NCBI GenBank assembly: GCA_003144275.1
Contig: NJBF01000040.1
Span: 1-32,000 of the forward strand
Source of the DNA: Candidatus Heimdallarchaeota archaeon B3_Heim
GTDB lineage: Archaea; Asgardarchaeota; Heimdallarchaeia; Hodarchaeales; Hodarchaeaceae
Direction of reading: 5' to 3'
DNA length: 32,000 bases
This document shows, one piece after another, positions 2,183 to 10,740 of this stretch (positions are counted from its first letter, which is position 1; each line of letters starts with the position of its first letter). The notes below the pieces were generated by a model that made no database searches, was not told the origin of the DNA, and saw only the letters and a program-made list of their open reading frames with translations. A program made the translations under genes and the position numbers.

Positions 2183-3232
2183 ATGGTGAAAAAATCTTTT
2201 CATAATTTTTTGGAACAGATCCAAAACACACAAAGACAGGCTATAGAGCAAGTTGAAAGGGTACAGTCTGATAGACTTCAAGATTTTGATTATCAAGAAG
2301 ATCCTCCAAAAATGATTGCGATCGACGGCTCGAATCGCTGGATCTGGAATAATCCCGACATTAATGCACGTATTGCAATTATTCGTACCGCTTATGTTGT
2401 TTATGAGTTTAATAGCGACTTTTCCCCTCCTATGCAGATTCTTAATCAAGGTTCTCAAGATGAAGCGGTTCTGATTGCACCTGATAACCCCAACATTCAT
2501 ACTTATGATCAAGATTTCCAGAAATTGCATACTGAAATACAGAGAATAATTGGTCGCAAAAATCCATTAGGGGAAACCCTCTCTTTGCTTCGTTCACTTG
2601 CTGAATTCAAAATGGTGGAGGAATTGGCTAGTAATTATACGGAATCACTGATTGTGATGGATGGCGCTTTGACTTATGTACAGATAAAAGAATTTGAAGA
2701 CACCATTAGGAATATTGTCAAGGCCTGCAAGAAAAATAACAATATTTTGATTGGAGTATCAAAAAGGAATATTACACGGTGGCTTGGATCCGAACTAACT
2801 GATGAAGCAGTTATGAGAGAAATTGCCCGAAATGACCAAAAAATGATGTATATGGATATTCCAACGATACCCAAATCCCAACAGAAATTCCCATCTATTG
2901 GTAAGACTTATCTAGCGAAATTGCATGCAAAACCTGTTAAAACCTTTAGAGTGGATATTTATAACCCTTTAAATGTAAATGATAATAAAGTTCTGTCACA
3001 TCTAGCATACTACTCACAGGTGAACACATTTCCTGGATATCCATTTCCCTTAGTAGATGCACATACTATTGCAGCCCTTTTAAGGCGTGTTCCGGATATG
3101 TATAATCACGAATTACTAGAAGTCGGCATTCAACTTGGTTTCACAGAAGATGAATTACTCCAATACATGATAACACATGAAAATATGGAAACTGATCCAT
3201 TCCACAGATATTTAGACGATGCAACAAGATAA
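2183..3232 (+). CDS. nurA: NurA 5'-3' nuclease
   Basis: Motifs IAIDGS, LAE, LIVMDGAL, IGVSK and C-terminal GYPFPLVDAH; AGGAG upstream of the ATG; directly upstream of herA. Confidence 0.9.
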   Translation: MVKKSFHNFLEQIQNTQRQAIEQVERVQSDRLQDFDYQEDPPKMIAIDGSNRWIWNNPDINARIAIIRTAYVVYEFNSDFSPPMQILNQGSQDEAVLIAPDNPNIHTYDQDFQKLHTEIQRIIGRKNPLGETLSLLRSLAEFKMVEELASNYTESLIVMDGALTYVQIKEFEDTIRNIVKACKKNNNILIGVSKRNITRWLGSELTDEAVMREIARNDQKMMYMDIPTIPKSQQKFPSIGKTYLAKLHAKPVKTFRVDIYNPLNVNDNKVLSHLAYYSQVNTFPGYPFPLVDAHTIAALLRRVPDMYNHELLEVGIQLGFTEDELLQYMITHENMETDPFHRYLDDATR

Positions 3233-3259: not shown

Positions 3260-4846
3260 ATGAAGAAAGATATTGAAGAAAAGATAGCTCTAGGTGAAGT
3301 TATTTCGGGTGCTGTAAGTGGTGCAATCCAATTAAAGCTCAGGACCGATAGTGAGGAAGTGAAAATAGGATTTCCTGCAGTCATTGAGGGGAAAAAATAT
3401 GATTTCTTTTCCATTATTTCTGATATTCAATTCCCAACAAGTAATGCGGTCACTATGTTAGCAAATGCAGAAAAACTGCGAAATACGATACCCTTGAATA
3501 CCATCGACACTTCTAGGGGACGTACATTTTATAGTATTGCTGAGCTCCAGTGTGTTCAAATGATTGAGCAGACATCTGGCAAAGCTTTTGAATTTGAGAC
3601 CCTTCCCCCTTATTTTTCATCAGGTCGATTAGCGAGTAAATCTGATGTGCAACGGGTATATCAAACAGACCTCCCTGAAAATACTCAATCAGTTGGAACC
3701 CTCAGAGGGGTAGAAGGATTTGAAATTCCAATTGATTTCAAAAAACTCGTAGAGGTACCGTTTGGGATTTTTGGTCGAACACACTCGGGAAAAACTTTTC
3801 TCAATAAGATAATCCTTGGAAATATTATTAAAACTGAGGTATCGCAGATTCTGGTTTTTGATATGCAATCCGAATATGGGTGGCGATCCCGCGCTGATAA
3901 TTCCCCTGGTCTGAAGTTTTTCTTTGAAGATCAAGTCACTCTATTAAGTCTTGACCCGAGCACAAGTAAAAGCCACGATGAGGATTTATTGATAGGAGAA
4001 AACGAAATAGAACCTGAGGATTTAATCGTAGCTTTCCAAGATCTTTCACCTACAATGATTGATGCAATTTATGAGATAAATCGAACGAAACCCTCATCAC
4101 AAACTCTTATGGAAGGAATTCATGCAGCACTGATAGCCGACCCCCCTCCTCAACGCATTAATCGTGGAACTTTGAACGCTTTGAGTAGACGTATCATGAG
4201 ATTAGATCGCTTATCTTTTGTAGTGAAATCCGATAAGGGAAATTTGAATAACATACTAAAATATATACAATCAGGCCAGAATATTGTAATCGACTTTGGG
4301 AAGTTTGGAGCGGATTTCTTCGCGTATGTGTTTGTGGCAAACATAATTTCTCGTCGATTATATAAAAGCTATAGTGAAATGGTCGATATGAGTGATTATC
4401 CTAGACTAGTTGTCCTTCTTGAAGAGGCTCATAAGTTTTTAGACCCCAGAATCTCGAAAAATACCATTTTTGATAGGCTTGCACGAGAAATGCGTAAATT
4501 TAATCTAGTATTGGCAATGGTCGATCAGCGACCTTCGAGAATTGACCCTGAGATATTATCACAACTCGCAAATCGATTCATTCTTTCCTTAACAGATCCT
4601 AAAGATACCATTAATGCTTTAACGGGCCCTGTTGATCCGGCGGCATGGCGAGCAATTGTACGTGCTATGCCTCCTCGTACTGTATTAATGTTTGGTGACG
4701 CAATCCGCGCACCGACGGCCATGGATGTTCTGGAGTATAATGAAAGCACAATGACTCAAAAATGGCAAATTAGCAGTACGTCCCAGGAGTTACGTGATAC
4801 TCTTGATTCCCTATCGGATGATGATAAAAGAAACATGTTCAAGTGA
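3260..4846 (+). CDS. herA: HerA (FtsK/HerA superfamily) DNA translocase/helicase
   Basis: N-terminal HAS-barrel-like region, Walker A GRTHSGKT, FDMQSEYG, Walker B VVLLEEAHKF, AREMRKF and DQRPS motifs; GAGG RBS. Confidence 0.93.
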   Translation: MKKDIEEKIALGEVISGAVSGAIQLKLRTDSEEVKIGFPAVIEGKKYDFFSIISDIQFPTSNAVTMLANAEKLRNTIPLNTIDTSRGRTFYSIAELQCVQMIEQTSGKAFEFETLPPYFSSGRLASKSDVQRVYQTDLPENTQSVGTLRGVEGFEIPIDFKKLVEVPFGIFGRTHSGKTFLNKIILGNIIKTEVSQILVFDMQSEYGWRSRADNSPGLKFFFEDQVTLLSLDPSTSKSHDEDLLIGENEIEPEDLIVAFQDLSPTMIDAIYEINRTKPSSQTLMEGIHAALIADPPPQRINRGTLNALSRRIMRLDRLSFVVKSDKGNLNNILKYIQSGQNIVIDFGKFGADFFAYVFVANIISRRLYKSYSEMVDMSDYPRLVVLLEEAHKFLDPRISKNTIFDRLAREMRKFNLVLAMVDQRPSRIDPEILSQLANRFILSLTDPKDTINALTGPVDPAAWRAIVRAMPPRTVLMFGDAIRAPTAMDVLEYNESTMTQKWQISSTSQELRDTLDSLSDDDKRNMFK

Positions 4847-4880
4847 TTAATCCTTATTTTTAATTCGAGATTTGATTAGA

Positions 4881-6104
4881 ATGGCAAAAATCGTCATAGT
4901 GGGAGATGTCCATATTGGAAAGCGATATGCATATCGTGTCAATTTGAAAACAGGCATTAGCGACCGTACTTTAGATTTTATTAATGCTCTTTCTAGAGTA
5001 GTTGCTTATGCAATCAATAATAAGGCCGATATATTTATCATTGCAGGGGATCTGTACGATCGCGTCACAGTCGGTCCAACACTTCTTCGACAAGTTAGAG
5101 AAACAATTTGGCAGCCTCTTATTGAAGCAAAAATTCCGATAGTTTGTATTGGGGGAAATCATGACTCACCACAAATATTTGAGAAAGGATCACCATTGGG
5201 AGAAATTTCTCTTTTTCCGAATAGTATTGTAGCACGATCTCCACAAACCGCTATAGTACACACTATGACTACAAAGGAAGAAATTGGTTTTCTTCTCCTA
5301 CCATATCTAACGGCATCCCAAGTTGTGAAGTTTGTAGAAGAACGTCTTGGTAAATCTGTCGAGAAGGAAAGACAGATGGTTTTAAGTCAAGAATATCTTA
5401 AATACTTTATAGAAAATGAATTAAAACAACTTCCCACTAAGACAAATCTTCTTGTTGGTCATTACTTCTTTCAAGGATCCAAAATTAATATTATTCCATA
5501 CCCAGATCATCTTCCTCATGAATTCAAATTTAAGAAAGATATGCTACCATTAGATAAAATTGACTTAGCAATATTCGGTCATATTCATACCACTCAAACT
5601 TTACATGGTGGAAAAGTTTTAGTTCCTGGATCATTGGAACGAGTAGATTTTGGTGAGGTGAACGAGGATAAAGGATTTTATGTATTCGAAACTACAACAG
5701 GAAAGCTAGAATTTATTACAAATAATCCTCGTTCGTTAGTTAAACAGTTTATTGAAGTACCAAGGGTAGAGGATCCTACAAATTACATAATTCAAAATTT
5801 ACCAAGAACATTAGAAGAGTCTATTGTCCGTATAATTATAAAAATATCCCCCGAATTAAAGAAGAAAGTACGTCTGCCACGTATTCATCAAGCGTTAGAT
5901 TCAACATTTCATTTTGAATTGTTCTGGGATACTTCTATAACTCAACGTGAAATAGTTCTCACTGATTTTGTTCTAGATCCATTAGTCTTATTTAATGACT
6001 TTATTACGAGAAAACTTGATCAAGACCCCAATTTGGAACAATTACGTCAAAAAGGATTAGAAATTCTTGATCGAGCACTCGCTCAGGTGGAAGAAAAGCT
6101 ATGA
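4881..6104 (+). CDS. mre11: Mre11/SbcD metallophosphoesterase nuclease
   Basis: Phosphoesterase motifs GDVHIG, GDLYD, GNHD, GHY and GHIH, plus PGSLERVDFGE. ATG at 4881 preferred over the TTG at 4872. Confidence 0.93.
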   Translation: MAKIVIVGDVHIGKRYAYRVNLKTGISDRTLDFINALSRVVAYAINNKADIFIIAGDLYDRVTVGPTLLRQVRETIWQPLIEAKIPIVCIGGNHDSPQIFEKGSPLGEISLFPNSIVARSPQTAIVHTMTTKEEIGFLLLPYLTASQVVKFVEERLGKSVEKERQMVLSQEYLKYFIENELKQLPTKTNLLVGHYFFQGSKINIIPYPDHLPHEFKFKKDMLPLDKIDLAIFGHIHTTQTLHGGKVLVPGSLERVDFGEVNEDKGFYVFETTTGKLEFITNNPRSLVKQFIEVPRVEDPTNYIIQNLPRTLEESIVRIIIKISPELKKKVRLPRIHQALDSTFHFELFWDTSITQREIVLTDFVLDPLVLFNDFITRKLDQDPNLEQLRQKGLEILDRALAQVEEKL

Positions 6105-8476
6105 GCGATACAGCCCATCACTCTTTCGGGGGAGGTTTTGATCTAATTTCTCTAGAAATATATCGCTTCATGAATTATCTGGGGAAACCAGTTAAATTTG
6201 CTTTCAATGCTCCCAATATCGTCATCTCTGGTCCAACCGGTTCAGGAAAAACAACAATTTTAGATGCCCTAACATTTGCTCTATTCGGTAGAAGCTCCCG
6301 ATTGGATCTAACTATTGTTAAAACAGAAGATATATGTGGGAATAATGGAAGAGTAACTTGTGAATTCCATATAGACAAAATCTATTACAAAATTATCCGT
6401 GGGAGGGACAGTAAGGGCAAAAGCTTTTTAGAACTGTTTATCAACAATGAACGGATTAATGGGAAAATTCCTGAGTTAAATGAGAAAATTCGGTCTACCA
6501 TCCTTGGAATGAATTATGCTGCTTTTGTAAATTCGACTATCATTCGCCAAGATGAAATGAAATCACTGGGATCTAAATCCTCAACAGAACGATTAAAAAC
6601 ATTACAAAACCTATTTCGACTGGATATTTTTAATAAAGCTATACAAGACACTCAAGAACAACTAATGACAATAAATGGCTTGAAAAATAAAGTAGAGGGT
6701 GAATTGCAAACAAATAAGAAGAATTTTTCCTCTAAAATACTTTTAGAAAAGAAAGTAAATCAATTAGTTCCTCAATTACAGAAATTGAAGAGTGAGGAAA
6801 AGAAGTCATTCAAGATAATCGGTGAAAAGGAACTAGAGAAGAATGAGAAACAAGAATTACATGAAAAATTCCAAATCACTTTAGATAGTATGAAAAACTC
6901 TGAAAAACAACTTATGAAGCTTGAAAATTCAGAGAGGAAATCAGAAGAAGAATTAAAAAAATATATGAAATTAAAAAATAATTCTATGGTTTTAGAGAAG
7001 CAAATTGAAGTAATTCGTAATCATGATGAGGAAATAAGATCTCTTGAAAGCAAGAAAAAAGAGTATACATTTATAAAATCTGGGATAGAAAAATTGATCC
7101 AGAGACGAAGGAAAGATGAATTACGACTCATAAAAGATACAGAAAAGAAGAATAATCTGAAAGCAGAAACAGTAAAGCGAATTGCGAACCTTACGACCGA
7201 TATCGATCATAAAAAGGCTTTTCAAATCTTGCAACAGGAGGGAAGATTAGGGGAACGAATTCAAAGAATTTCTCTTGAAAAATCATGGAAATTACCCGAT
7301 AAACTCATTCAGGAATTACTACAGGAACAATTAAACGCAAGATCTGATCTCAAAGAGTTATTAACGGAGAAAACAAAGATCAATATCGACTCTTTTAGAT
7401 TATCTGAAATCCAAGACACGGAAAACCAGTTAATAGCGGAAATCGAGAAATTAAATGAACGATTAAGCGAGTTAAAGGAATCTTCAGAGAAGGAAATCCA
7501 AGAGGAGAAAAACAAGCAAAAGAAGATTGGATTTTCTCCAGAAATACAGAAACATCTTGATATGTTGAAAAACTCACAAATTACTAATGAAAAGATAAAA
7601 AAAGAGTATACTACAGCAAAACATAACTTTGAGTCAATAATTGATCCTACAAGCAAAATAAATACTCTACAAAATCAAATCAAAGTGATTAAAGAGGAGA
7701 GAGTAAGATTTCGAGAGGAACTTAAAGATTATCGACAATTTCAAAAGGAGTTTGAATTTCTTAAAACTGACTTGAAAGAAAAAAAAGAAAGTGTCGAAAA
7801 ATTACAGATCCAATGTGTTCGTATGGATCAGGATATTAAGAACCTGCAATTTAATATTCTAGAACTTCAAAAATTAAAGCCAGAAATTAAAAAACTTGAG
7901 AAAAAGTTGGACAAGTTTATTCAGGAAGAAAACGTTTTAATTAAACTGAAGAATGAGGTGTTTCATATAAGGGGCGCTCCTTTCTATGCAATTAACAAGA
8001 TACTACCTCATCTTGGTAAGCGTGCTTCCCTAATTTTGTCAGATTTAACAAGCCGAAAATTAACTAGTGTTCAATTAGAAAGAATTGATAAAGGAAAACA
8101 AGGTTTGGGATTCAACATTAACATCCAAACTCCTCAAGGACCTCGGGATATTTCAACCTTTTCTGGTGGTGAACGTACTCAAATTAATGCGGCATTAAGA
8201 TTAGCGATCAGTGAAGAACTTTCCTATTTTGGTGGAGAAAGAGCTCAAGAATCAGGAACAAAGAAGACACTATTTATTGATGAGGGAGATTTGGGATCCC
8301 TTGATACTATGGAAGCTCAACAAGCATTCGTCAAGAAGCTCTTTGAATTAAGTAATAAATTTAAGATCATATTAATAACCCACATCACAGAAATTGCGGA
8401 TCAATTTCCACATTCCATTCAGATTACACGTGATACTTACGGGAGATCTATGAAAAATGCTGCGAGTGATACTTAG
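6101..8476 (+). CDS. rad50: Rad50/SbcC SMC-like ATPase without a CXXC zinc hook
   Basis: Walker A GPTGSGKT, Q-loop IIRQDE, ~450-aa coiled coil, signature FSGGE, Walker B LFIDE, D-loop SLD, H-loop ITH; ATGA overlap with the mre11 stop. Confidence 0.93.
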   Translation: MSDTAHHSFGGGFDLISLEIYRFMNYLGKPVKFAFNAPNIVISGPTGSGKTTILDALTFALFGRSSRLDLTIVKTEDICGNNGRVTCEFHIDKIYYKIIRGRDSKGKSFLELFINNERINGKIPELNEKIRSTILGMNYAAFVNSTIIRQDEMKSLGSKSSTERLKTLQNLFRLDIFNKAIQDTQEQLMTINGLKNKVEGELQTNKKNFSSKILLEKKVNQLVPQLQKLKSEEKKSFKIIGEKELEKNEKQELHEKFQITLDSMKNSEKQLMKLENSERKSEEELKKYMKLKNNSMVLEKQIEVIRNHDEEIRSLESKKKEYTFIKSGIEKLIQRRRKDELRLIKDTEKKNNLKAETVKRIANLTTDIDHKKAFQILQQEGRLGERIQRISLEKSWKLPDKLIQELLQEQLNARSDLKELLTEKTKINIDSFRLSEIQDTENQLIAEIEKLNERLSELKESSEKEIQEEKNKQKKIGFSPEIQKHLDMLKNSQITNEKIKKEYTTAKHNFESIIDPTSKINTLQNQIKVIKEERVRFREELKDYRQFQKEFEFLKTDLKEKKESVEKLQIQCVRMDQDIKNLQFNILELQKLKPEIKKLEKKLDKFIQEENVLIKLKNEVFHIRGAPFYAINKILPHLGKRASLILSDLTSRKLTSVQLERIDKGKQGLGFNINIQTPQGPRDISTFSGGERTQINAALRLAISEELSYFGGERAQESGTKKTLFIDEGDLGSLDTMEAQQAFVKKLFELSNKFKIILITHITEIADQFPHSIQITRDTYGRSMKNAASDT

Positions 8477-10740
8477 TGATCTCTGAATTCATTAAGAAAA
8501 TCAAGAATACATCTTATTATAAAGACCAAATTATATTCCAAAGGAGTATTCCTGAGAAAGACCCCCAATTTGGATCGCTTGCCTTCCAATTAGCTCCAGA
8601 ACTTGAGCAATGGCTGCGAGAGAACGAATGGAAGCTTTATTCTCACCAAGCCGATGCCCTGAATATTATAAATAAAGGAAAAAATGTTGTTGTAACCACT
8701 TCAACAGCATCGGGTAAAACATTAATTTTTTCATTGGCGGTAGCTCAAGCAATCACTCAAAGAGAAAATTCAACAGCATTATTCTTATATCCTATGAAAG
8801 CCCTAGCTAATGATCAGCTCAGTAAAATGGAAGAACTGAACGCAGTGTTGGAGGGGAGACTGCGACCTTTTATTTATGATGGAGACACACCATCCGAAAG
8901 ACGACCAGCGATTCGAAATACGGCCCGGGTTATTATCTCAAATCCATATGCCTTCCATCGCTATTTAGACTGGCATTCAAAGTGGGAACGATTTTTTCGA
9001 AATCTAAGATTTATAGTTATTGATGAGGCACATACCTACCGAGGAGTGTTTGGTTCAAATGTAGCACAACTTATTCGGAGATTACAACGGATCTGTGAAT
9101 TTTATCGTTCCCAACCACAATTTATTCTCTCTTCAGCTACAATAAACAATCCAAGAGAATTTGCTGAGAAGCTTATTGGTACTCCTCTTCATATCATCAC
9201 GAACGATGGTTCTCAGCAAGGTTCAAAGGAATTAGTTATATGGAACCCTCCCTTTGTCGATCAGTTTAATTCAAAACGAAGATCACCACATCAAGAGACA
9301 CGTGATTTACTTTTTAGCCATTTAAGTGAACATTATCAGACGCTTTGCTTCACCCTTTCAAGAAAAATGTCGGAAATCATTGCAGTCTGGGCGCGTCAAG
9401 ATCTCGAGAAGCACGAATTAGATCCTGAACAAGTAATGGCTTATCGAGCAGGGTATCGTCCCCTAGAACGAAGGAGAATTGAGAGCCAATTAAGGAATCG
9501 GGAAATATCTGCAGTCGTTAGCACAAATGCTCTTGAAGTAGGTATTGATATTGGCAATCTAGATGCAGTGCTTCTAAGTGGATTCCCAGGTACAATAATT
9601 TCAACTTGGCAACAAATCGGACGTGTCGGTAGAACTACTCGTCCTTCTCTTGCCACTCTAATTCTCTTTGAAGACGCTTATCAGCAGTTCTTAGGGCGTC
9701 ATCCAGAATATTTCCTAGAGAAGACCCCTGAGAATGCTATAATTGATTTAAACAATCCATATATCGTAAAAGGACACATTTTGTGTGCAGCTTCAGAACT
9801 ACCTATTAAAAAAGCTGAAATCAGCAAAATATGGGGAGAAGTTGGGATGAAAGTTATCAAAGAGTTATTAAATCAGGATGTACTAAAACTAGTTCCTGCA
9901 GGTATAGTTCCCAAGTCAATTAAGCATCCTTCACAACAAGTCAGTTTAAATTCAGCATTTACAGAGTCTATTGAGATTATAGTGAGTGAAAAGTTGTTAG
10001 AAACGATGACAACGGCCCAAGCATATCGTGAAGCGCATGAGGGAGCGATTTTAATCCATCAAGGGGAGAAATATCTTATTGAGACTATTGATTGGGAGAA
10101 TAAGAAGGCTTATGCATCTCCCCATCGGGTTGATTATTATACAGAAGCCATTTCTATAAGTGATGTAGAAATTATTGCCCAAGAAAACGAAAAGGATATT
10201 GGGTACTTATTGACCTTTGGTGAAGTTAAAGTAACTGAGTTCTATCATTCCTACAGAAAAAAAACATACGATGAAGTGCTTGAAATAGTACCATTCGACC
10301 TTCCCCCACTGGAATTTAATACGAAAGCTGTGTGGATTAATCTTCCTTCATCTATAGTAACTAAAGTAAAAGCGGAGAAGAAAGATTTTTCTGGGGGAAT
10401 TCATGCATTAGAGCATGCAACGATCGCTTTATCTCCCTTATTTGCTCTTTGTGATCGCTGGGATATCGGAGGCACGTCTTACCCTAATTTTCCAGATGAT
10501 GGAACAGCTAAAATCTTTATTTACGATGGATTCCCGGGGGGCATTGGAATTGCAGAACAATTATTCGAAAAGTGGGAAGTCCTCTTATCAAATGTGCTAC
10601 AGCTAATCCAAGAATGTCCTTGTAGTGAGGGATGTCCTTCTTGCATTCAATCGCCTAAATGTGGTAATGATAACTTTCCTCTAAGTAAAGAAGTGGCAAT
10701 TGACCTTTTGAAAGAATTAAAATTGCTTTCAAAGAACTGA
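8476..10740 (+). CDS. SF2 DEAH-box helicase with C-terminal DUF1998 (MrfA/YprA/SftH/Hrq1 family)
   Basis: TSTASGKT, YPMKAL, DEAH, SAT, YRAGY, TNALEVGIDIG, QQIGRVGR, HALEH, IYDGFPGGIG and the Zn-binding CPCSEGCPSC..SPKC. The GTG start shares one base with the rad50 stop (TAGTG). Confidence 0.93.
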   Translation: MISEFIKKIKNTSYYKDQIIFQRSIPEKDPQFGSLAFQLAPELEQWLRENEWKLYSHQADALNIINKGKNVVVTTSTASGKTLIFSLAVAQAITQRENSTALFLYPMKALANDQLSKMEELNAVLEGRLRPFIYDGDTPSERRPAIRNTARVIISNPYAFHRYLDWHSKWERFFRNLRFIVIDEAHTYRGVFGSNVAQLIRRLQRICEFYRSQPQFILSSATINNPREFAEKLIGTPLHIITNDGSQQGSKELVIWNPPFVDQFNSKRRSPHQETRDLLFSHLSEHYQTLCFTLSRKMSEIIAVWARQDLEKHELDPEQVMAYRAGYRPLERRRIESQLRNREISAVVSTNALEVGIDIGNLDAVLLSGFPGTIISTWQQIGRVGRTTRPSLATLILFEDAYQQFLGRHPEYFLEKTPENAIIDLNNPYIVKGHILCAASELPIKKAEISKIWGEVGMKVIKELLNQDVLKLVPAGIVPKSIKHPSQQVSLNSAFTESIEIIVSEKLLETMTTAQAYREAHEGAILIHQGEKYLIETIDWENKKAYASPHRVDYYTEAISISDVEIIAQENEKDIGYLLTFGEVKVTEFYHSYRKKTYDEVLEIVPFDLPPLEFNTKAVWINLPSSIVTKVKAEKKDFSGGIHALEHATIALSPLFALCDRWDIGGTSYPNFPDDGTAKIFIYDGFPGGIGIAEQLFEKWEVLLSNVLQLIQECPCSEGCPSCIQSPKCGNDNFPLSKEVAIDLLKELKLLSKN

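Follow-up and report, generated by a model that had tools for sequence, protein, structure and literature searches.

A Mre11-partnered Rad50 of a Hodarchaeales archaeon lacks the zinc hook and carries a conserved apex module predicted to dimerize

Rad50 relatives with and without a hook

Across Rad50/SbcC proteins, from those of phages to those of humans, the CXXC zinc hook is generally taken to be a defining and universal element, and opinions still differ on whether this hook has a special function of its own or simply serves as a stable clasp. The archaeal order of the present host, Hodarchaeales, is regarded as closest to eukaryotes. Canonical archaeal Rad50s (M. jannaschii, 3AUX, 3AV0, and 5DNY; P. 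furiosus, 1F2U, 1L8D, and 6ZFF) have a full ABC head and a long antiparallel coil, and both features were shared by P0001, the Rad50-type protein (791 aa) encoded within a window of 32,000 nucleotides from the Hodarchaeales archaeon B3_Heim, the whole stretch of DNA analyzed here. Also shared were the operon partners NurA, HerA, and Mre11, with mre11 lying upstream and overlapping the rad50 gene. In contrast, P0001 had no CXXC but a 75-residue apex module (predicted to pair with itself in parallel and free of metal), its operon in this genus had an extra downstream MrfA/Hrq1-type helicase, and P. furiosus Rad50 is longer by ~90 residues.

Hook loss as such has precedents with different apexes, namely SbcE/YhaN (PMC2811018) and some Lamassu LmuB proteins (PMC12663957), and the uniqueness implied by an earlier, sequence-only reading of this DNA was overstated, since both were already published with other apexes and partners. 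SbcE (YhaN) of Bacillus subtilis is, like P0001, a CxxC-less SbcC/Rad50-like ATPase with its own conserved central domain; it pairs with the Mre11-family nuclease SbcF (YhaO) and acts in double-strand-break repair (PMC2811018). The SbcE domain, however, is hydrophobic and insoluble with a conserved Pro (PMC2811018), whereas charged residues made up 35% of the P0001 apex and its hydropathy over 19 residues peaked at -0.27, on which ground a membrane hairpin of SbcE-like design was rejected. P0001 had no match to PF13514 (AAA_27, the SbcE/YhaN head), and, unlike SbcE, its heads fell in the archaeal Rad50 clade and its gene in a HerA-NurA operon.

The short forms of Lamassu LmuB (e.g., Vibrio cholerae DdmC/Vc-Cap4) are likewise Rad50/SbcC-derived SMC-like ATPases with a CxxC count of 0, 1, or 2, some clades having lost the hook (PMC12663957). 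In phage defense, LmuB acts together with LmuC and the effector LmuA, and a hookless LmuB apex binds LmuA/LmuC rather than simply dimerizing (PMC12663957); in contrast, the partners of P0001 are Mre11, HerA, and NurA, and its match to the PADLOC LmuB model (53 bits) covered the head only. The archaeal ASRPs (ClsN and Sph1/2) are Rad50-like ATPases of similar size, nearly all of which keep the zinc hook without a link to Mre11 (PMC9389158), unlike the hookless, Mre11-linked P0001, which scored 18.8 bits against a cutoff of 300 with the ASRP model NF045487. Finally, S. pombe Rad50 chimeras in which the hook was swapped for a MukB or B. subtilis SMC hinge retained repair (PMC6969161). They share with P0001 the idea that an unrelated protein module replaces the hook, but they are artificial and carry a globular hinge, whereas the P0001 family is natural with a predicted small helical bundle. 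In the literature consulted, with incomplete coverage, on Mre11-linked Rad50s without a hook and on the hooks of Asgard Rad50s, no description of the family was found.

The rad50 gene and its operon

On the strength of its sequence and gene neighbors, P0001 is the Rad50 partner of Mre11 in this Hodarchaeales (Asgard) archaeon, encoded in a co-oriented run of genes in the order NurA-HerA-Mre11-Rad50-helicase (Table 1). The bipartite head was complete, with Q150, D730, and H761 accompanying the Walker A, signature, and Walker B motifs, and these motifs were invariant or nearly so in an alignment of 53 sequences. In the full-length AlphaFold2 model (pLDDT 78), a long antiparallel coiled coil splits the head halves (helices 176-362 and 430-620, with the fold-back at aa 394-399). 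The family profile matched M. jannaschii Rad50 (3aux; E, 3.8e-36) as well as 3qf7 and E. coli SbcC (6s6v; E, 1.8e-20), and the top Foldseek match of P0001 was C. thermophilum Rad50 (7zr1). P0001 fell far under the cutoff of every NCBIfam Rad50/SbcC equivalog or subfamily model, the best being TIGR00618 (101 bits versus a cutoff of 478.5); motif-based annotation (PF04423, NCBIfam Rad50 equivalogs) overlooks these proteins and labels them only "AAA family ATPase." In a head-domain tree, from which the apex columns were left out, P0001 was nested in the archaeal-type Rad50 clade (100/100) with bacterial SbcC outside, and the hookless family together with Mre11-Rad50 fusions formed one clade (100/99). 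The position of this hookless clade inside the hook-bearing archaeal-type Rad50s (100/100) means that the hookless state is derived.

Table 1. Coordinates of the operon genes and of the Rad50 features within the window
Feature	Position	Strand	Remarks
NurA nuclease gene	2183..3232	+	First gene of the operon; Pfam PF09376 NurA, E 6.4e-14
HerA-type hexameric ATPase/translocase gene	3260..4846	+	PF01935 (HerA central domain), E 2.3e-19
Mre11/SbcD nuclease gene	4872..6104	+	Metallophos, E 6.4e-15; TIGR00619 sbcd, 75.8 bits
Rad50-type ABC ATPase gene, no zinc hook	6101..8476	+	791 aa (P0001); start ATG overlapping mre11 stop (ATGA)
Walker A GPTGSGKT, aa 44-51	6230..6253	+	G44, T46, G47, G49, K50 invariant
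Conserved apex module, aa 363-437	7187..7411	+	Break, helix 370-393, tip, helix 400-424, break, DSFxLSE
Apex helix A, aa 370-393	7208..7279	+	Core of the predicted homodimer interface
Tip loop K-S-W-K-L-P, aa 394-399	7280..7297	+	Loop in AlphaFold2; position of CPxC in relatives
Apex helix B, aa 400-424	7298..7372	+	Returning strand of the hairpin (AlphaFold2)
ABC signature SGGE, aa 688-691	8162..8173	+	S688, G689, G690, E691 invariant
Walker B LFIDE, aa 724-728	8270..8284	+	D-loop and H761 downstream of the motif
DEAH helicase gene, C-terminal MrfA zinc-binding domain (MrfA/Hrq1 type)	8476..10740	+	GTG overlaps rad50 stop (TAGTG)

The phosphoesterase motifs of Mre11 were visible (GDVH, GDLYD, GNHD, and GHIH), and its true start is likely the ATG at 4881 (MAKIV...), where the equivalent Met of orthologs lies. 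Recoding, considered for the Mre11 of genomes G280 and G102 with one TGA inside, was rejected, as the stop sits just upstream of the true ATG. The HerA protein scored far under all NCBIfam HerA cutoffs. The helicase, which matched the Pfam domains DEAD, Helicase_C, WHD_HRQ1, and MZB as well as TIGR03817 (723 bits), was the sole MZB-domain gene of the genome. The pairing of mre11 with rad50 was kept in all related loci, as a single fused open reading frame in L031 to L033. A search of the 94%-complete genome with this Mre11 as the query recovered a single Mre11 homolog, which, together with the presence of the operon in 17 of 20 same-genus genomes, fits a housekeeping role. A Rad50/ASRP-like paralog that bears a hook (contig C4; 838 aa; CPTC) is present in the same genome among defense-like neighbors, and apex-to-apex functions could in principle be shared out between the two proteins.

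Absence of the hook and conservation of the apex

The sequence-only reading had counted two Cys residues in the head and one in the returning coil, and the translation bore this out: the only Cys residues of P0001 are C79 (EDICGNN), C87 (RVTCEFH), and C572 (QIQCVRM), CXXC occurs nowhere in the protein, and the nearest Cys is ~170 residues from the tip. The stretch singled out by that reading, 7193-7405, encodes aa 365-435, and the coiled-coil midpoint was found as it had been given, GERIQRISLEKSWKLPDKLIQELL. Close homologs carrying CXXC, which would have spoken for a recent loss or an error, were looked for and none appeared: the motif was absent from all full-length Asgard homologs (0/53; 28 to 78% identity) and from the ~20 same-genus genomic copies. 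Every more distant relative examined had CPxC at the midpoint, and in hook-bearing Asgard Rad50s this CPxC aligned into a gap between W396-K-L and P399. The two groups had arms of equal length: spacing in the hookless family versus these hook-bearing Rad50s was 343 to 349 versus 344 to 351 residues from Walker A to the tip and 291 to 297 versus 296 to 300 residues from the tip to the signature. Hook absence rests on regular-expression and alignment checks; the lack of a PF04423 match in P0001 or its own genome carries little weight, and this model also missed the CPTC of the C4 paralog. An alternative His/Asp metal site was rejected, H370 not being conserved (H, Q, Y, S, A, or K across the family). 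Judged by the alignments, hook absence is a family trait, neither a sequencing error nor a recent loss, and the core proposal of a zinc-independent apex held, with dimerization and the absence of metal as predictions.

The apex had been described as a plain helical hairpin, a description that does not stand: by alignment it is a sharply conserved, family-specific module. Conservation at aa 376-390 reached 3.4 bits versus 1.5 to 1.9 bits in the arms; across aa 363-437 it was comparable to that of the ATPase motifs, forming the most conserved stretch outside the head between poorly conserved arms. In the homolog alignment, which the same reading had suggested for the tip, W396 is invariant within this island, as are L377, E380, G381, R389, I390, E393, and F432 (53 sequences). 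AlphaFold2 modeled the apex fragment as a helical hairpin (pLDDT 89; helices and tip loop as in Table 1), and the symmetric breaks proposed to flank it coincide with modeled helix breaks at 363-369 (NLTTDID) and 425-429 (KINID). An apex profile searched against 1.84 billion proteins matched only the hookless family. Foldseek of the fragment against the PDB returned nothing significant; the best match was the ING4 dimerization domain (E, 0.12), followed by designed hairpin dimers and lower down the P. furiosus Rad50 rod (6zff; E, 0.76), all of them generic helical hairpins, and no solved structure was found to resemble the apex by sequence or fold.

Predicted pairing of the apex and competing readings

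In the structure prediction that had been proposed for the apex dimer, two copies of aa 330-465 paired in register with a score of 0.62 (0.62, 0.62, and 0.64 in the runs) versus 0.00 for the best control, the score being the model's own confidence in a class of elongated helical fragments that are readily placed side by side. Partner pLDDT was at least 87 and contact agreement between runs was 100%; contacts were limited to aa 370-436 and were parallel and in register, with self-contacts 377-377, 381-381, 385-385, 389-389, and 393-393. In the calibration, 20 of 30 proteins with solved structures as one-chain pairs scored at this mark, versus 1 of 23 solved as single chains; these counts apply only roughly to the apex model because a custom alignment was supplied, and they are compatible with as many as ~19 in 100 single-chain proteins scoring this high. 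The interface held 12 of 16 conserved apex residues (Fisher P, 1.5e-5; descriptive only), and because the alignment was fed to the model, conservation and interface are nonindependent lines. Because the apex has no counterpart among solved structures, the model probably did not pass by reproducing a solved hook. The best reading is that the apex is a predicted zinc-free dimerization module in place of the hook; homodimerization of P0001, its geometry, its metal independence, and a role in repair are what we infer.

Overall, we lean toward the explanation, in our judgment somewhat probable, that a protein-only dimerization module replaced the CXXC hook in this Rad50 lineage. The coiled coil would end in a conserved hairpin unit of ~75 residues (aa 363-437), which a break on either side separates from the arms, and two such hairpins, lying parallel and in register, would associate laterally as a four-helix bundle involving F374, L377, G381, E385/R386, R389, E393, W396, and F432. 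The bundle would join the distal arm ends of one Mre11(2)-Rad50(2) complex into a metal-free closed ring or rod, which is the hook's job elsewhere. The usual cycle would then proceed, in which ATP drives head engagement, DNA ends are sensed, and Mre11 cleaves, with hand-over from Mre11-Rad50 to HerA-NurA and, in this genus, to the coupled MrfA/Hrq1-type helicase. That the hook-to-hinge swap works in yeast (PMC6969161) argues that only stable dimerization is needed. The only Mre11-partnered Rad50 found here, in an apparently normal repair operon, appears to have naturally swapped the hook for a helical module; if this module dimerizes without metal, it would be a natural counterpart of the hook-to-hinge swaps and a compact, testable metal-independent dimerizer. 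A eukaryotic-type hook cannot be presumed in every Asgard lineage.

The sequence-only reading had left dimerization and helicase docking side by side as roles for the apex; the former is now favored by the two-copy score and an interface on invariant residues, and the latter is disfavored. We regard it as unlikely, though to be taken seriously, that docking is the main role of the apex (with the MrfA/Hrq1-type helicase, HerA-NurA, or, if the arm folds back, Mre11 as the bound protein), as in hookless Vibrio Lamassu, where the LmuB apex touches LmuC and the LmuA C-terminal domain (PMC12663957). Several invariant residues form a charged patch (E380, E385, R386, R389, and E393) that would also suit a partner-binding surface, and the helicase gene, overlapping the rad50 stop, comes after rad50 in all same-genus loci for which downstream DNA is available. 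However, neither L030, whose genes run Mre11-Rad50-NurA-HerA, nor any of the Mre11-Rad50 fusions L031 to L033 has a helicase within the available locus sequence, yet all of them kept the apex motif, and the invariant hydrophobic or aromatic residues F374, L377, W396, and F432 map to the symmetric self-interface of the two-copy model. Docking and dimerization can coexist in one apex. A wider reading, more doubtful than docking, would have an Asgard Mre11-linked Rad50 clade (the Hodarchaeales-type family, the natural Mre11-Rad50 fusions, and an Atabeyarchaeia family) lose the hook once and the Hodarchaeales-type apex act bifunctionally, as a metal-free, possibly reversible clasp and as a recruiter of resection partners, either HerA-NurA or the coupled Hrq1/MrfA-like helicase. 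If true, the archaea nearest to eukaryotes would have an end-resection machine of new architecture; support for the sisterhood of the Hodarchaeales-type and Atabeyarchaeia families was only 89/70.

We consider it improbable, more so than either docking or the wider reading, that the apex is a mere stable turn, with free arm ends and dimerization only through the ATPase heads and Mre11. Much Rad50 biochemistry resides in the head, as short phage gp46 and head-only constructs indicate, and the apex matched only generic hairpins in Foldseek, none significantly. Yet a turn would not require residues spread over ~60 positions to be as invariant as the Walker motifs when the rest of the coiled coil drifts, and the two-copy model passed its controls; moreover, Rad50 with a disabled hook (CC to GG) does not function in vivo but is rescued by any stable dimerizer (PMC6969161).

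Very improbable is a Lamassu-like or HerA-type anti-phage or anti-plasmid role of the five genes, with the odd apex reflecting defense. The best NCBIfam match of the HerA protein was "HerA_antiphage" (66 bits versus a cutoff of 800), and beside the PADLOC LmuB match of P0001, the helicase matched DruE, SngC, and BrxH models; these matches are weak and generic, however, and P0001 scored higher with Rad50 models and solved Rad50. NurA had no PADLOC match, no LmuA or LmuC was found, the genome's only detected Mre11 sits in this operon, and the operon's spread through the genus, with identities tracking relatedness, is unlike that of patchy defense islands. An assembly or sequencing artifact, or a decaying gene with recent hook loss, has nothing in its favor except the missing motif and a negligible probability, given an intact reading frame with all ATPase motifs kept, the hookless state of 53 independent homologs from many assemblies, and a 97%-identical copy in another genome.

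A Rad50 protein lacking the zinc hook

P0001 is the fourth gene product of a tightly packed, co-oriented operon, preceded by NurA, a HerA-type ATPase, and Mre11/SbcD and followed by a DEAH helicase; the mre11 stop overlaps the rad50 ATG (ATGA), and the rad50 stop overlaps the helicase GTG (TAGTG). It is a Rad50 by its head motifs, head phylogeny, coiled coil, and Mre11 linkage, and it lacks the CXXC hook, the single feature usually held diagnostic of Rad50. Pfam matches were to AAA_23, SMC_N, and AAA_29, with weak, subthreshold matches to the SbcC and Rad50 models; because it scores below every curated Rad50/SbcC cutoff, the protein is annotated merely as “AAA family ATPase.” A profile of the P0001 family matched solved Rad50 heads (M. 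jannaschii 3aux, E = 3.8e-36; also T. maritima and E. coli SbcC), and the solved structure closest to the full-length AlphaFold2 model (pLDDT 78) was Chaetomium Rad50 (7zr1). The nearest homologs carry source names that assign the organism to the Hodarchaeales within the Asgard archaea.

The sequence-only reading, which quoted the sequence correctly, had reported no zinc hook and only three cysteines, and this was borne out: C79, C87, and C572 are the only ones, and no CXXC occurs anywhere in the 791 residues. The hairpin with symmetric breaks that it placed at 7193-7405 (aa 365-435) was likewise recovered in AlphaFold2 models of the full-length protein and of the apex fragment (fragment pLDDT 89), as helix 309-362, break 363-369, helix 370-393, tip loop 394-399 (KSWKLP), helix 400-424, break 425-429, and a helix from residue 430.

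Coordinates of the operon, adjacent reading frames, and related genes at other loci (positions without a locus prefix refer to the window)
Feature	Position	Strand	Remarks
ORF directly 5' of the operon, 333 aa	936-1937	+	
NurA	2183-3232	+	PF09376
HerA-type ATPase	3260-4846	+	
Mre11/SbcD	4872-6104	+	phosphoesterase motifs intact
P0001, Rad50-type, 791 aa	6101-8476	+	
Antisense ORF overlapping the apex-coding region, 115 aa	7309-7656	-	probably spurious
DEAH helicase with HRQ1 winged helix and MrfA zinc-binding domain	8476-10740	+	TIGR03817, 723 bits
Mre11-Rad50 fusion ORF	L031:1492-5067	-	
Mre11-Rad50 fusion ORF	L032:262-3831	+	
Mre11-Rad50 fusion ORF	L033:1492-5070	-	
Atabeyarchaeia Rad50	L034:1426-3858	-	
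Second Rad50/SMC-like gene, contig C4, 838 aa	L011:9704-12220	+	CPTC hook at aa 337-340

Spread and origin of the hookless state

About 60 relatives (780-830 aa; 28-78% identity) were recovered when 5.8 billion proteins were searched; all those with a named source were from Asgard archaea, and not one carried CXXC. This shared absence excludes an assembly or sequencing artifact or an accident. The next, more distant matches all carried CP[VLT]C at the midpoint, plus PF04423. Among 301 scanned Asgard genomes, hookless Rad50 was found in 17 of the 20 from the window's genus and in a few from three other families, in two of which it takes the form of a natural Mre11-Rad50 fusion. These single-ORF fusions (approximately 1190-1207 aa; also proteins P0155, P0157, P0158, and P0160) bear a related Cys-free apex (AFxxLxxxGxLTERLxRL ... 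KDIFI). A 2011 survey described Mre11-Rad50 fusions in eukaryotes, bacteria, viruses, and plasmids, with archaeal ones unmentioned in the part of it considered here (PMC3175470).

Other families of the same class encode a hook-bearing Rad50 beside Mre11 and HerA (CPKC in genome G178, CELC in G074). In a tree built from head-domain columns only, the hookless family and the fusions formed one clade (100/99). This clade lay within the archaeal-type Rad50s that bear hooks (100/100), and bacterial SbcC fell outside them; the hookless state is therefore derived. The Atabeyarchaeia also encode Rad50s beside Mre11 without any CXXC (about 809 aa; 16 proteins, P0164-P0179; loci L034 and L035), whose apex is conserved but different (HxxSIDxLE ... 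LVxELPKLS) and which were placed as sister to the Hodarchaeales-type family with support of only 89/70.

Hook loss itself is already known: SbcE/YhaN of B. subtilis has a central domain of its own and no CxxC (PMC2811018), and the number of CxxC motifs in LmuB clades ranges from zero to two (PMC12663957). A literature search of incomplete coverage found no account of the P0001 apex module, of the hook status of Asgard Rad50s, or of any NurA-HerA-Mre11-Rad50 operon whose Rad50 is hookless. In this family, which belongs to an evolutionarily interesting lineage, a textbook motif has clearly been replaced in nature by a conserved alternative, whose mechanism is so far only predicted.

The window's own genome also encodes a second Rad50/SMC-like protein, on contig C4, which is ASRP-like (84.7 bits) and whose hook was missed by the PF04423 scan. 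It lacks an Mre11 partner, and its neighbors (AAA, AAA_15/AAA_21, and Schlafen AlbA_2 genes) form a defense-like neighborhood.

A conserved apex module and its predicted self-pairing

The apex had been described as plain, which it is not: per-column conservation over 53 sequences revealed an island at aa 361-437 that peaks at 3.4 bits (aa 376-390), the level of the ATPase motifs, compared with 1.5-1.9 bits in the arms. L377, E380, G381, R389, I390, E393, W396, and F432 were invariant, and A373, F374, L383, E385, R386, I427, D430, and E436 were at least 90% conserved. The CPxC of hook-bearing relatives aligns into a gap between W396-K-L and P399, and arm lengths are equal in hookless and hook-bearing forms (Walker A to tip, 343-349 versus 344-351 residues; tip to signature, 291-297 versus 296-300), so that the module sits exactly where the hook sits. 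Judged by composition (35% charged, maximum hydropathy -0.27), it is soluble in character, unlike the hydrophobic central domain of SbcE. A 97-residue apex profile searched against 1.84 billion representative proteins gave 48 matches, all of them members, fragments, or fusions of the same family, and none outside the hookless family.

Folding aa 330-465 as a pair gave a score of 0.62 (runs 0.62, 0.62, and 0.64) against 0.00 for the best control, with partner pLDDT of at least 87 and runs agreeing in 100% of contacts. For calibration, 20 of 30 proteins whose solved structures are pairs of one chain attained this mark, as did 1 of 23 solved single-chain proteins, counts that are only a rough guide because the apex model used its own alignment. 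No solved structure resembling the apex by sequence or fold was found, so memory of a solved hook is an unlikely source of the result. The modeling supports binding of two apex copies to each other. Predicted contacts involve residues 370, 374, 377-386, 389, 393, 396, 398, 402, 428-429, 432-433, and 436, with none along the flanking arms; the closest are the self-pairs 377-377, 381-381, 385-385, 389-389, 393-393, and 396-396, which implies that helix 370-393 of one chain packs against its counterpart in the other in parallel and in register, with two-fold symmetry. The paired hairpins would form a bundle of four helices from which the two arms exit on the same side. The predicted interface includes 12 of the 16 conserved residues (Fisher p = 1.5e-5), an overlap that is descriptive only, as the model saw the alignment. 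Of the two alternatives in the sequence-only reading, the new dimerization interface is thus favored as a prediction: the two-copy model passes its controls, and the interface falls on conserved residues.

The most economical reading, and one we somewhat favor, is that the module would act as a constitutive clasp that needs no zinc and closes the ring or rod formed by Mre11(2)-Rad50(2), since yeast Rad50 works with a MukB or SMC hinge in place of its hook, but not with the cysteines removed (PMC6969161). Docking of some partner protein, which is rather unlikely, would fit the charged invariant residues and has a precedent in Lamassu, where LmuC and LmuA attach to the apex of a hookless LmuB (PMC12663957). 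The case for docking of the coupled helicase, as had been suggested, loses weight because locus L030 (Mre11-Rad50-NurA-HerA) and the fusions retain the apex motif with no helicase adjacent. At every same-genus locus for which downstream DNA is available, rad50 is followed by that MrfA/Hrq1-type helicase with its MZB zinc domain. The helicase is the product of the genome's sole MZB gene and is better conserved than Rad50 (63-97% versus 43-97% identity). A purely structural turn is improbable, as it would leave the head-level conservation of the apex unexplained. That the operon is a defense system is highly improbable: weak generic matches are all that speak for it, whereas the operon is conserved across the genus and its Mre11 is the sole one detected in a genome that is 94% complete.

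Several minor features of the region were also recorded. The ORF directly 5' of the operon had no Pfam match. The listed mre11 ORF starts at TTG 4872, whereas orthologs begin at the Met equivalent to ATG 4881 (MAKIV), and a “1 TGA inside” flag in mre11 of two relatives reflects a stop upstream of the true start. The sense strand over the apex-coding region, which the antisense ORF overlaps, is extremely purine-rich (AT skew 0.25, GC 0.32), as expected of sequence coding for a Lys/Glu-rich coiled coil.
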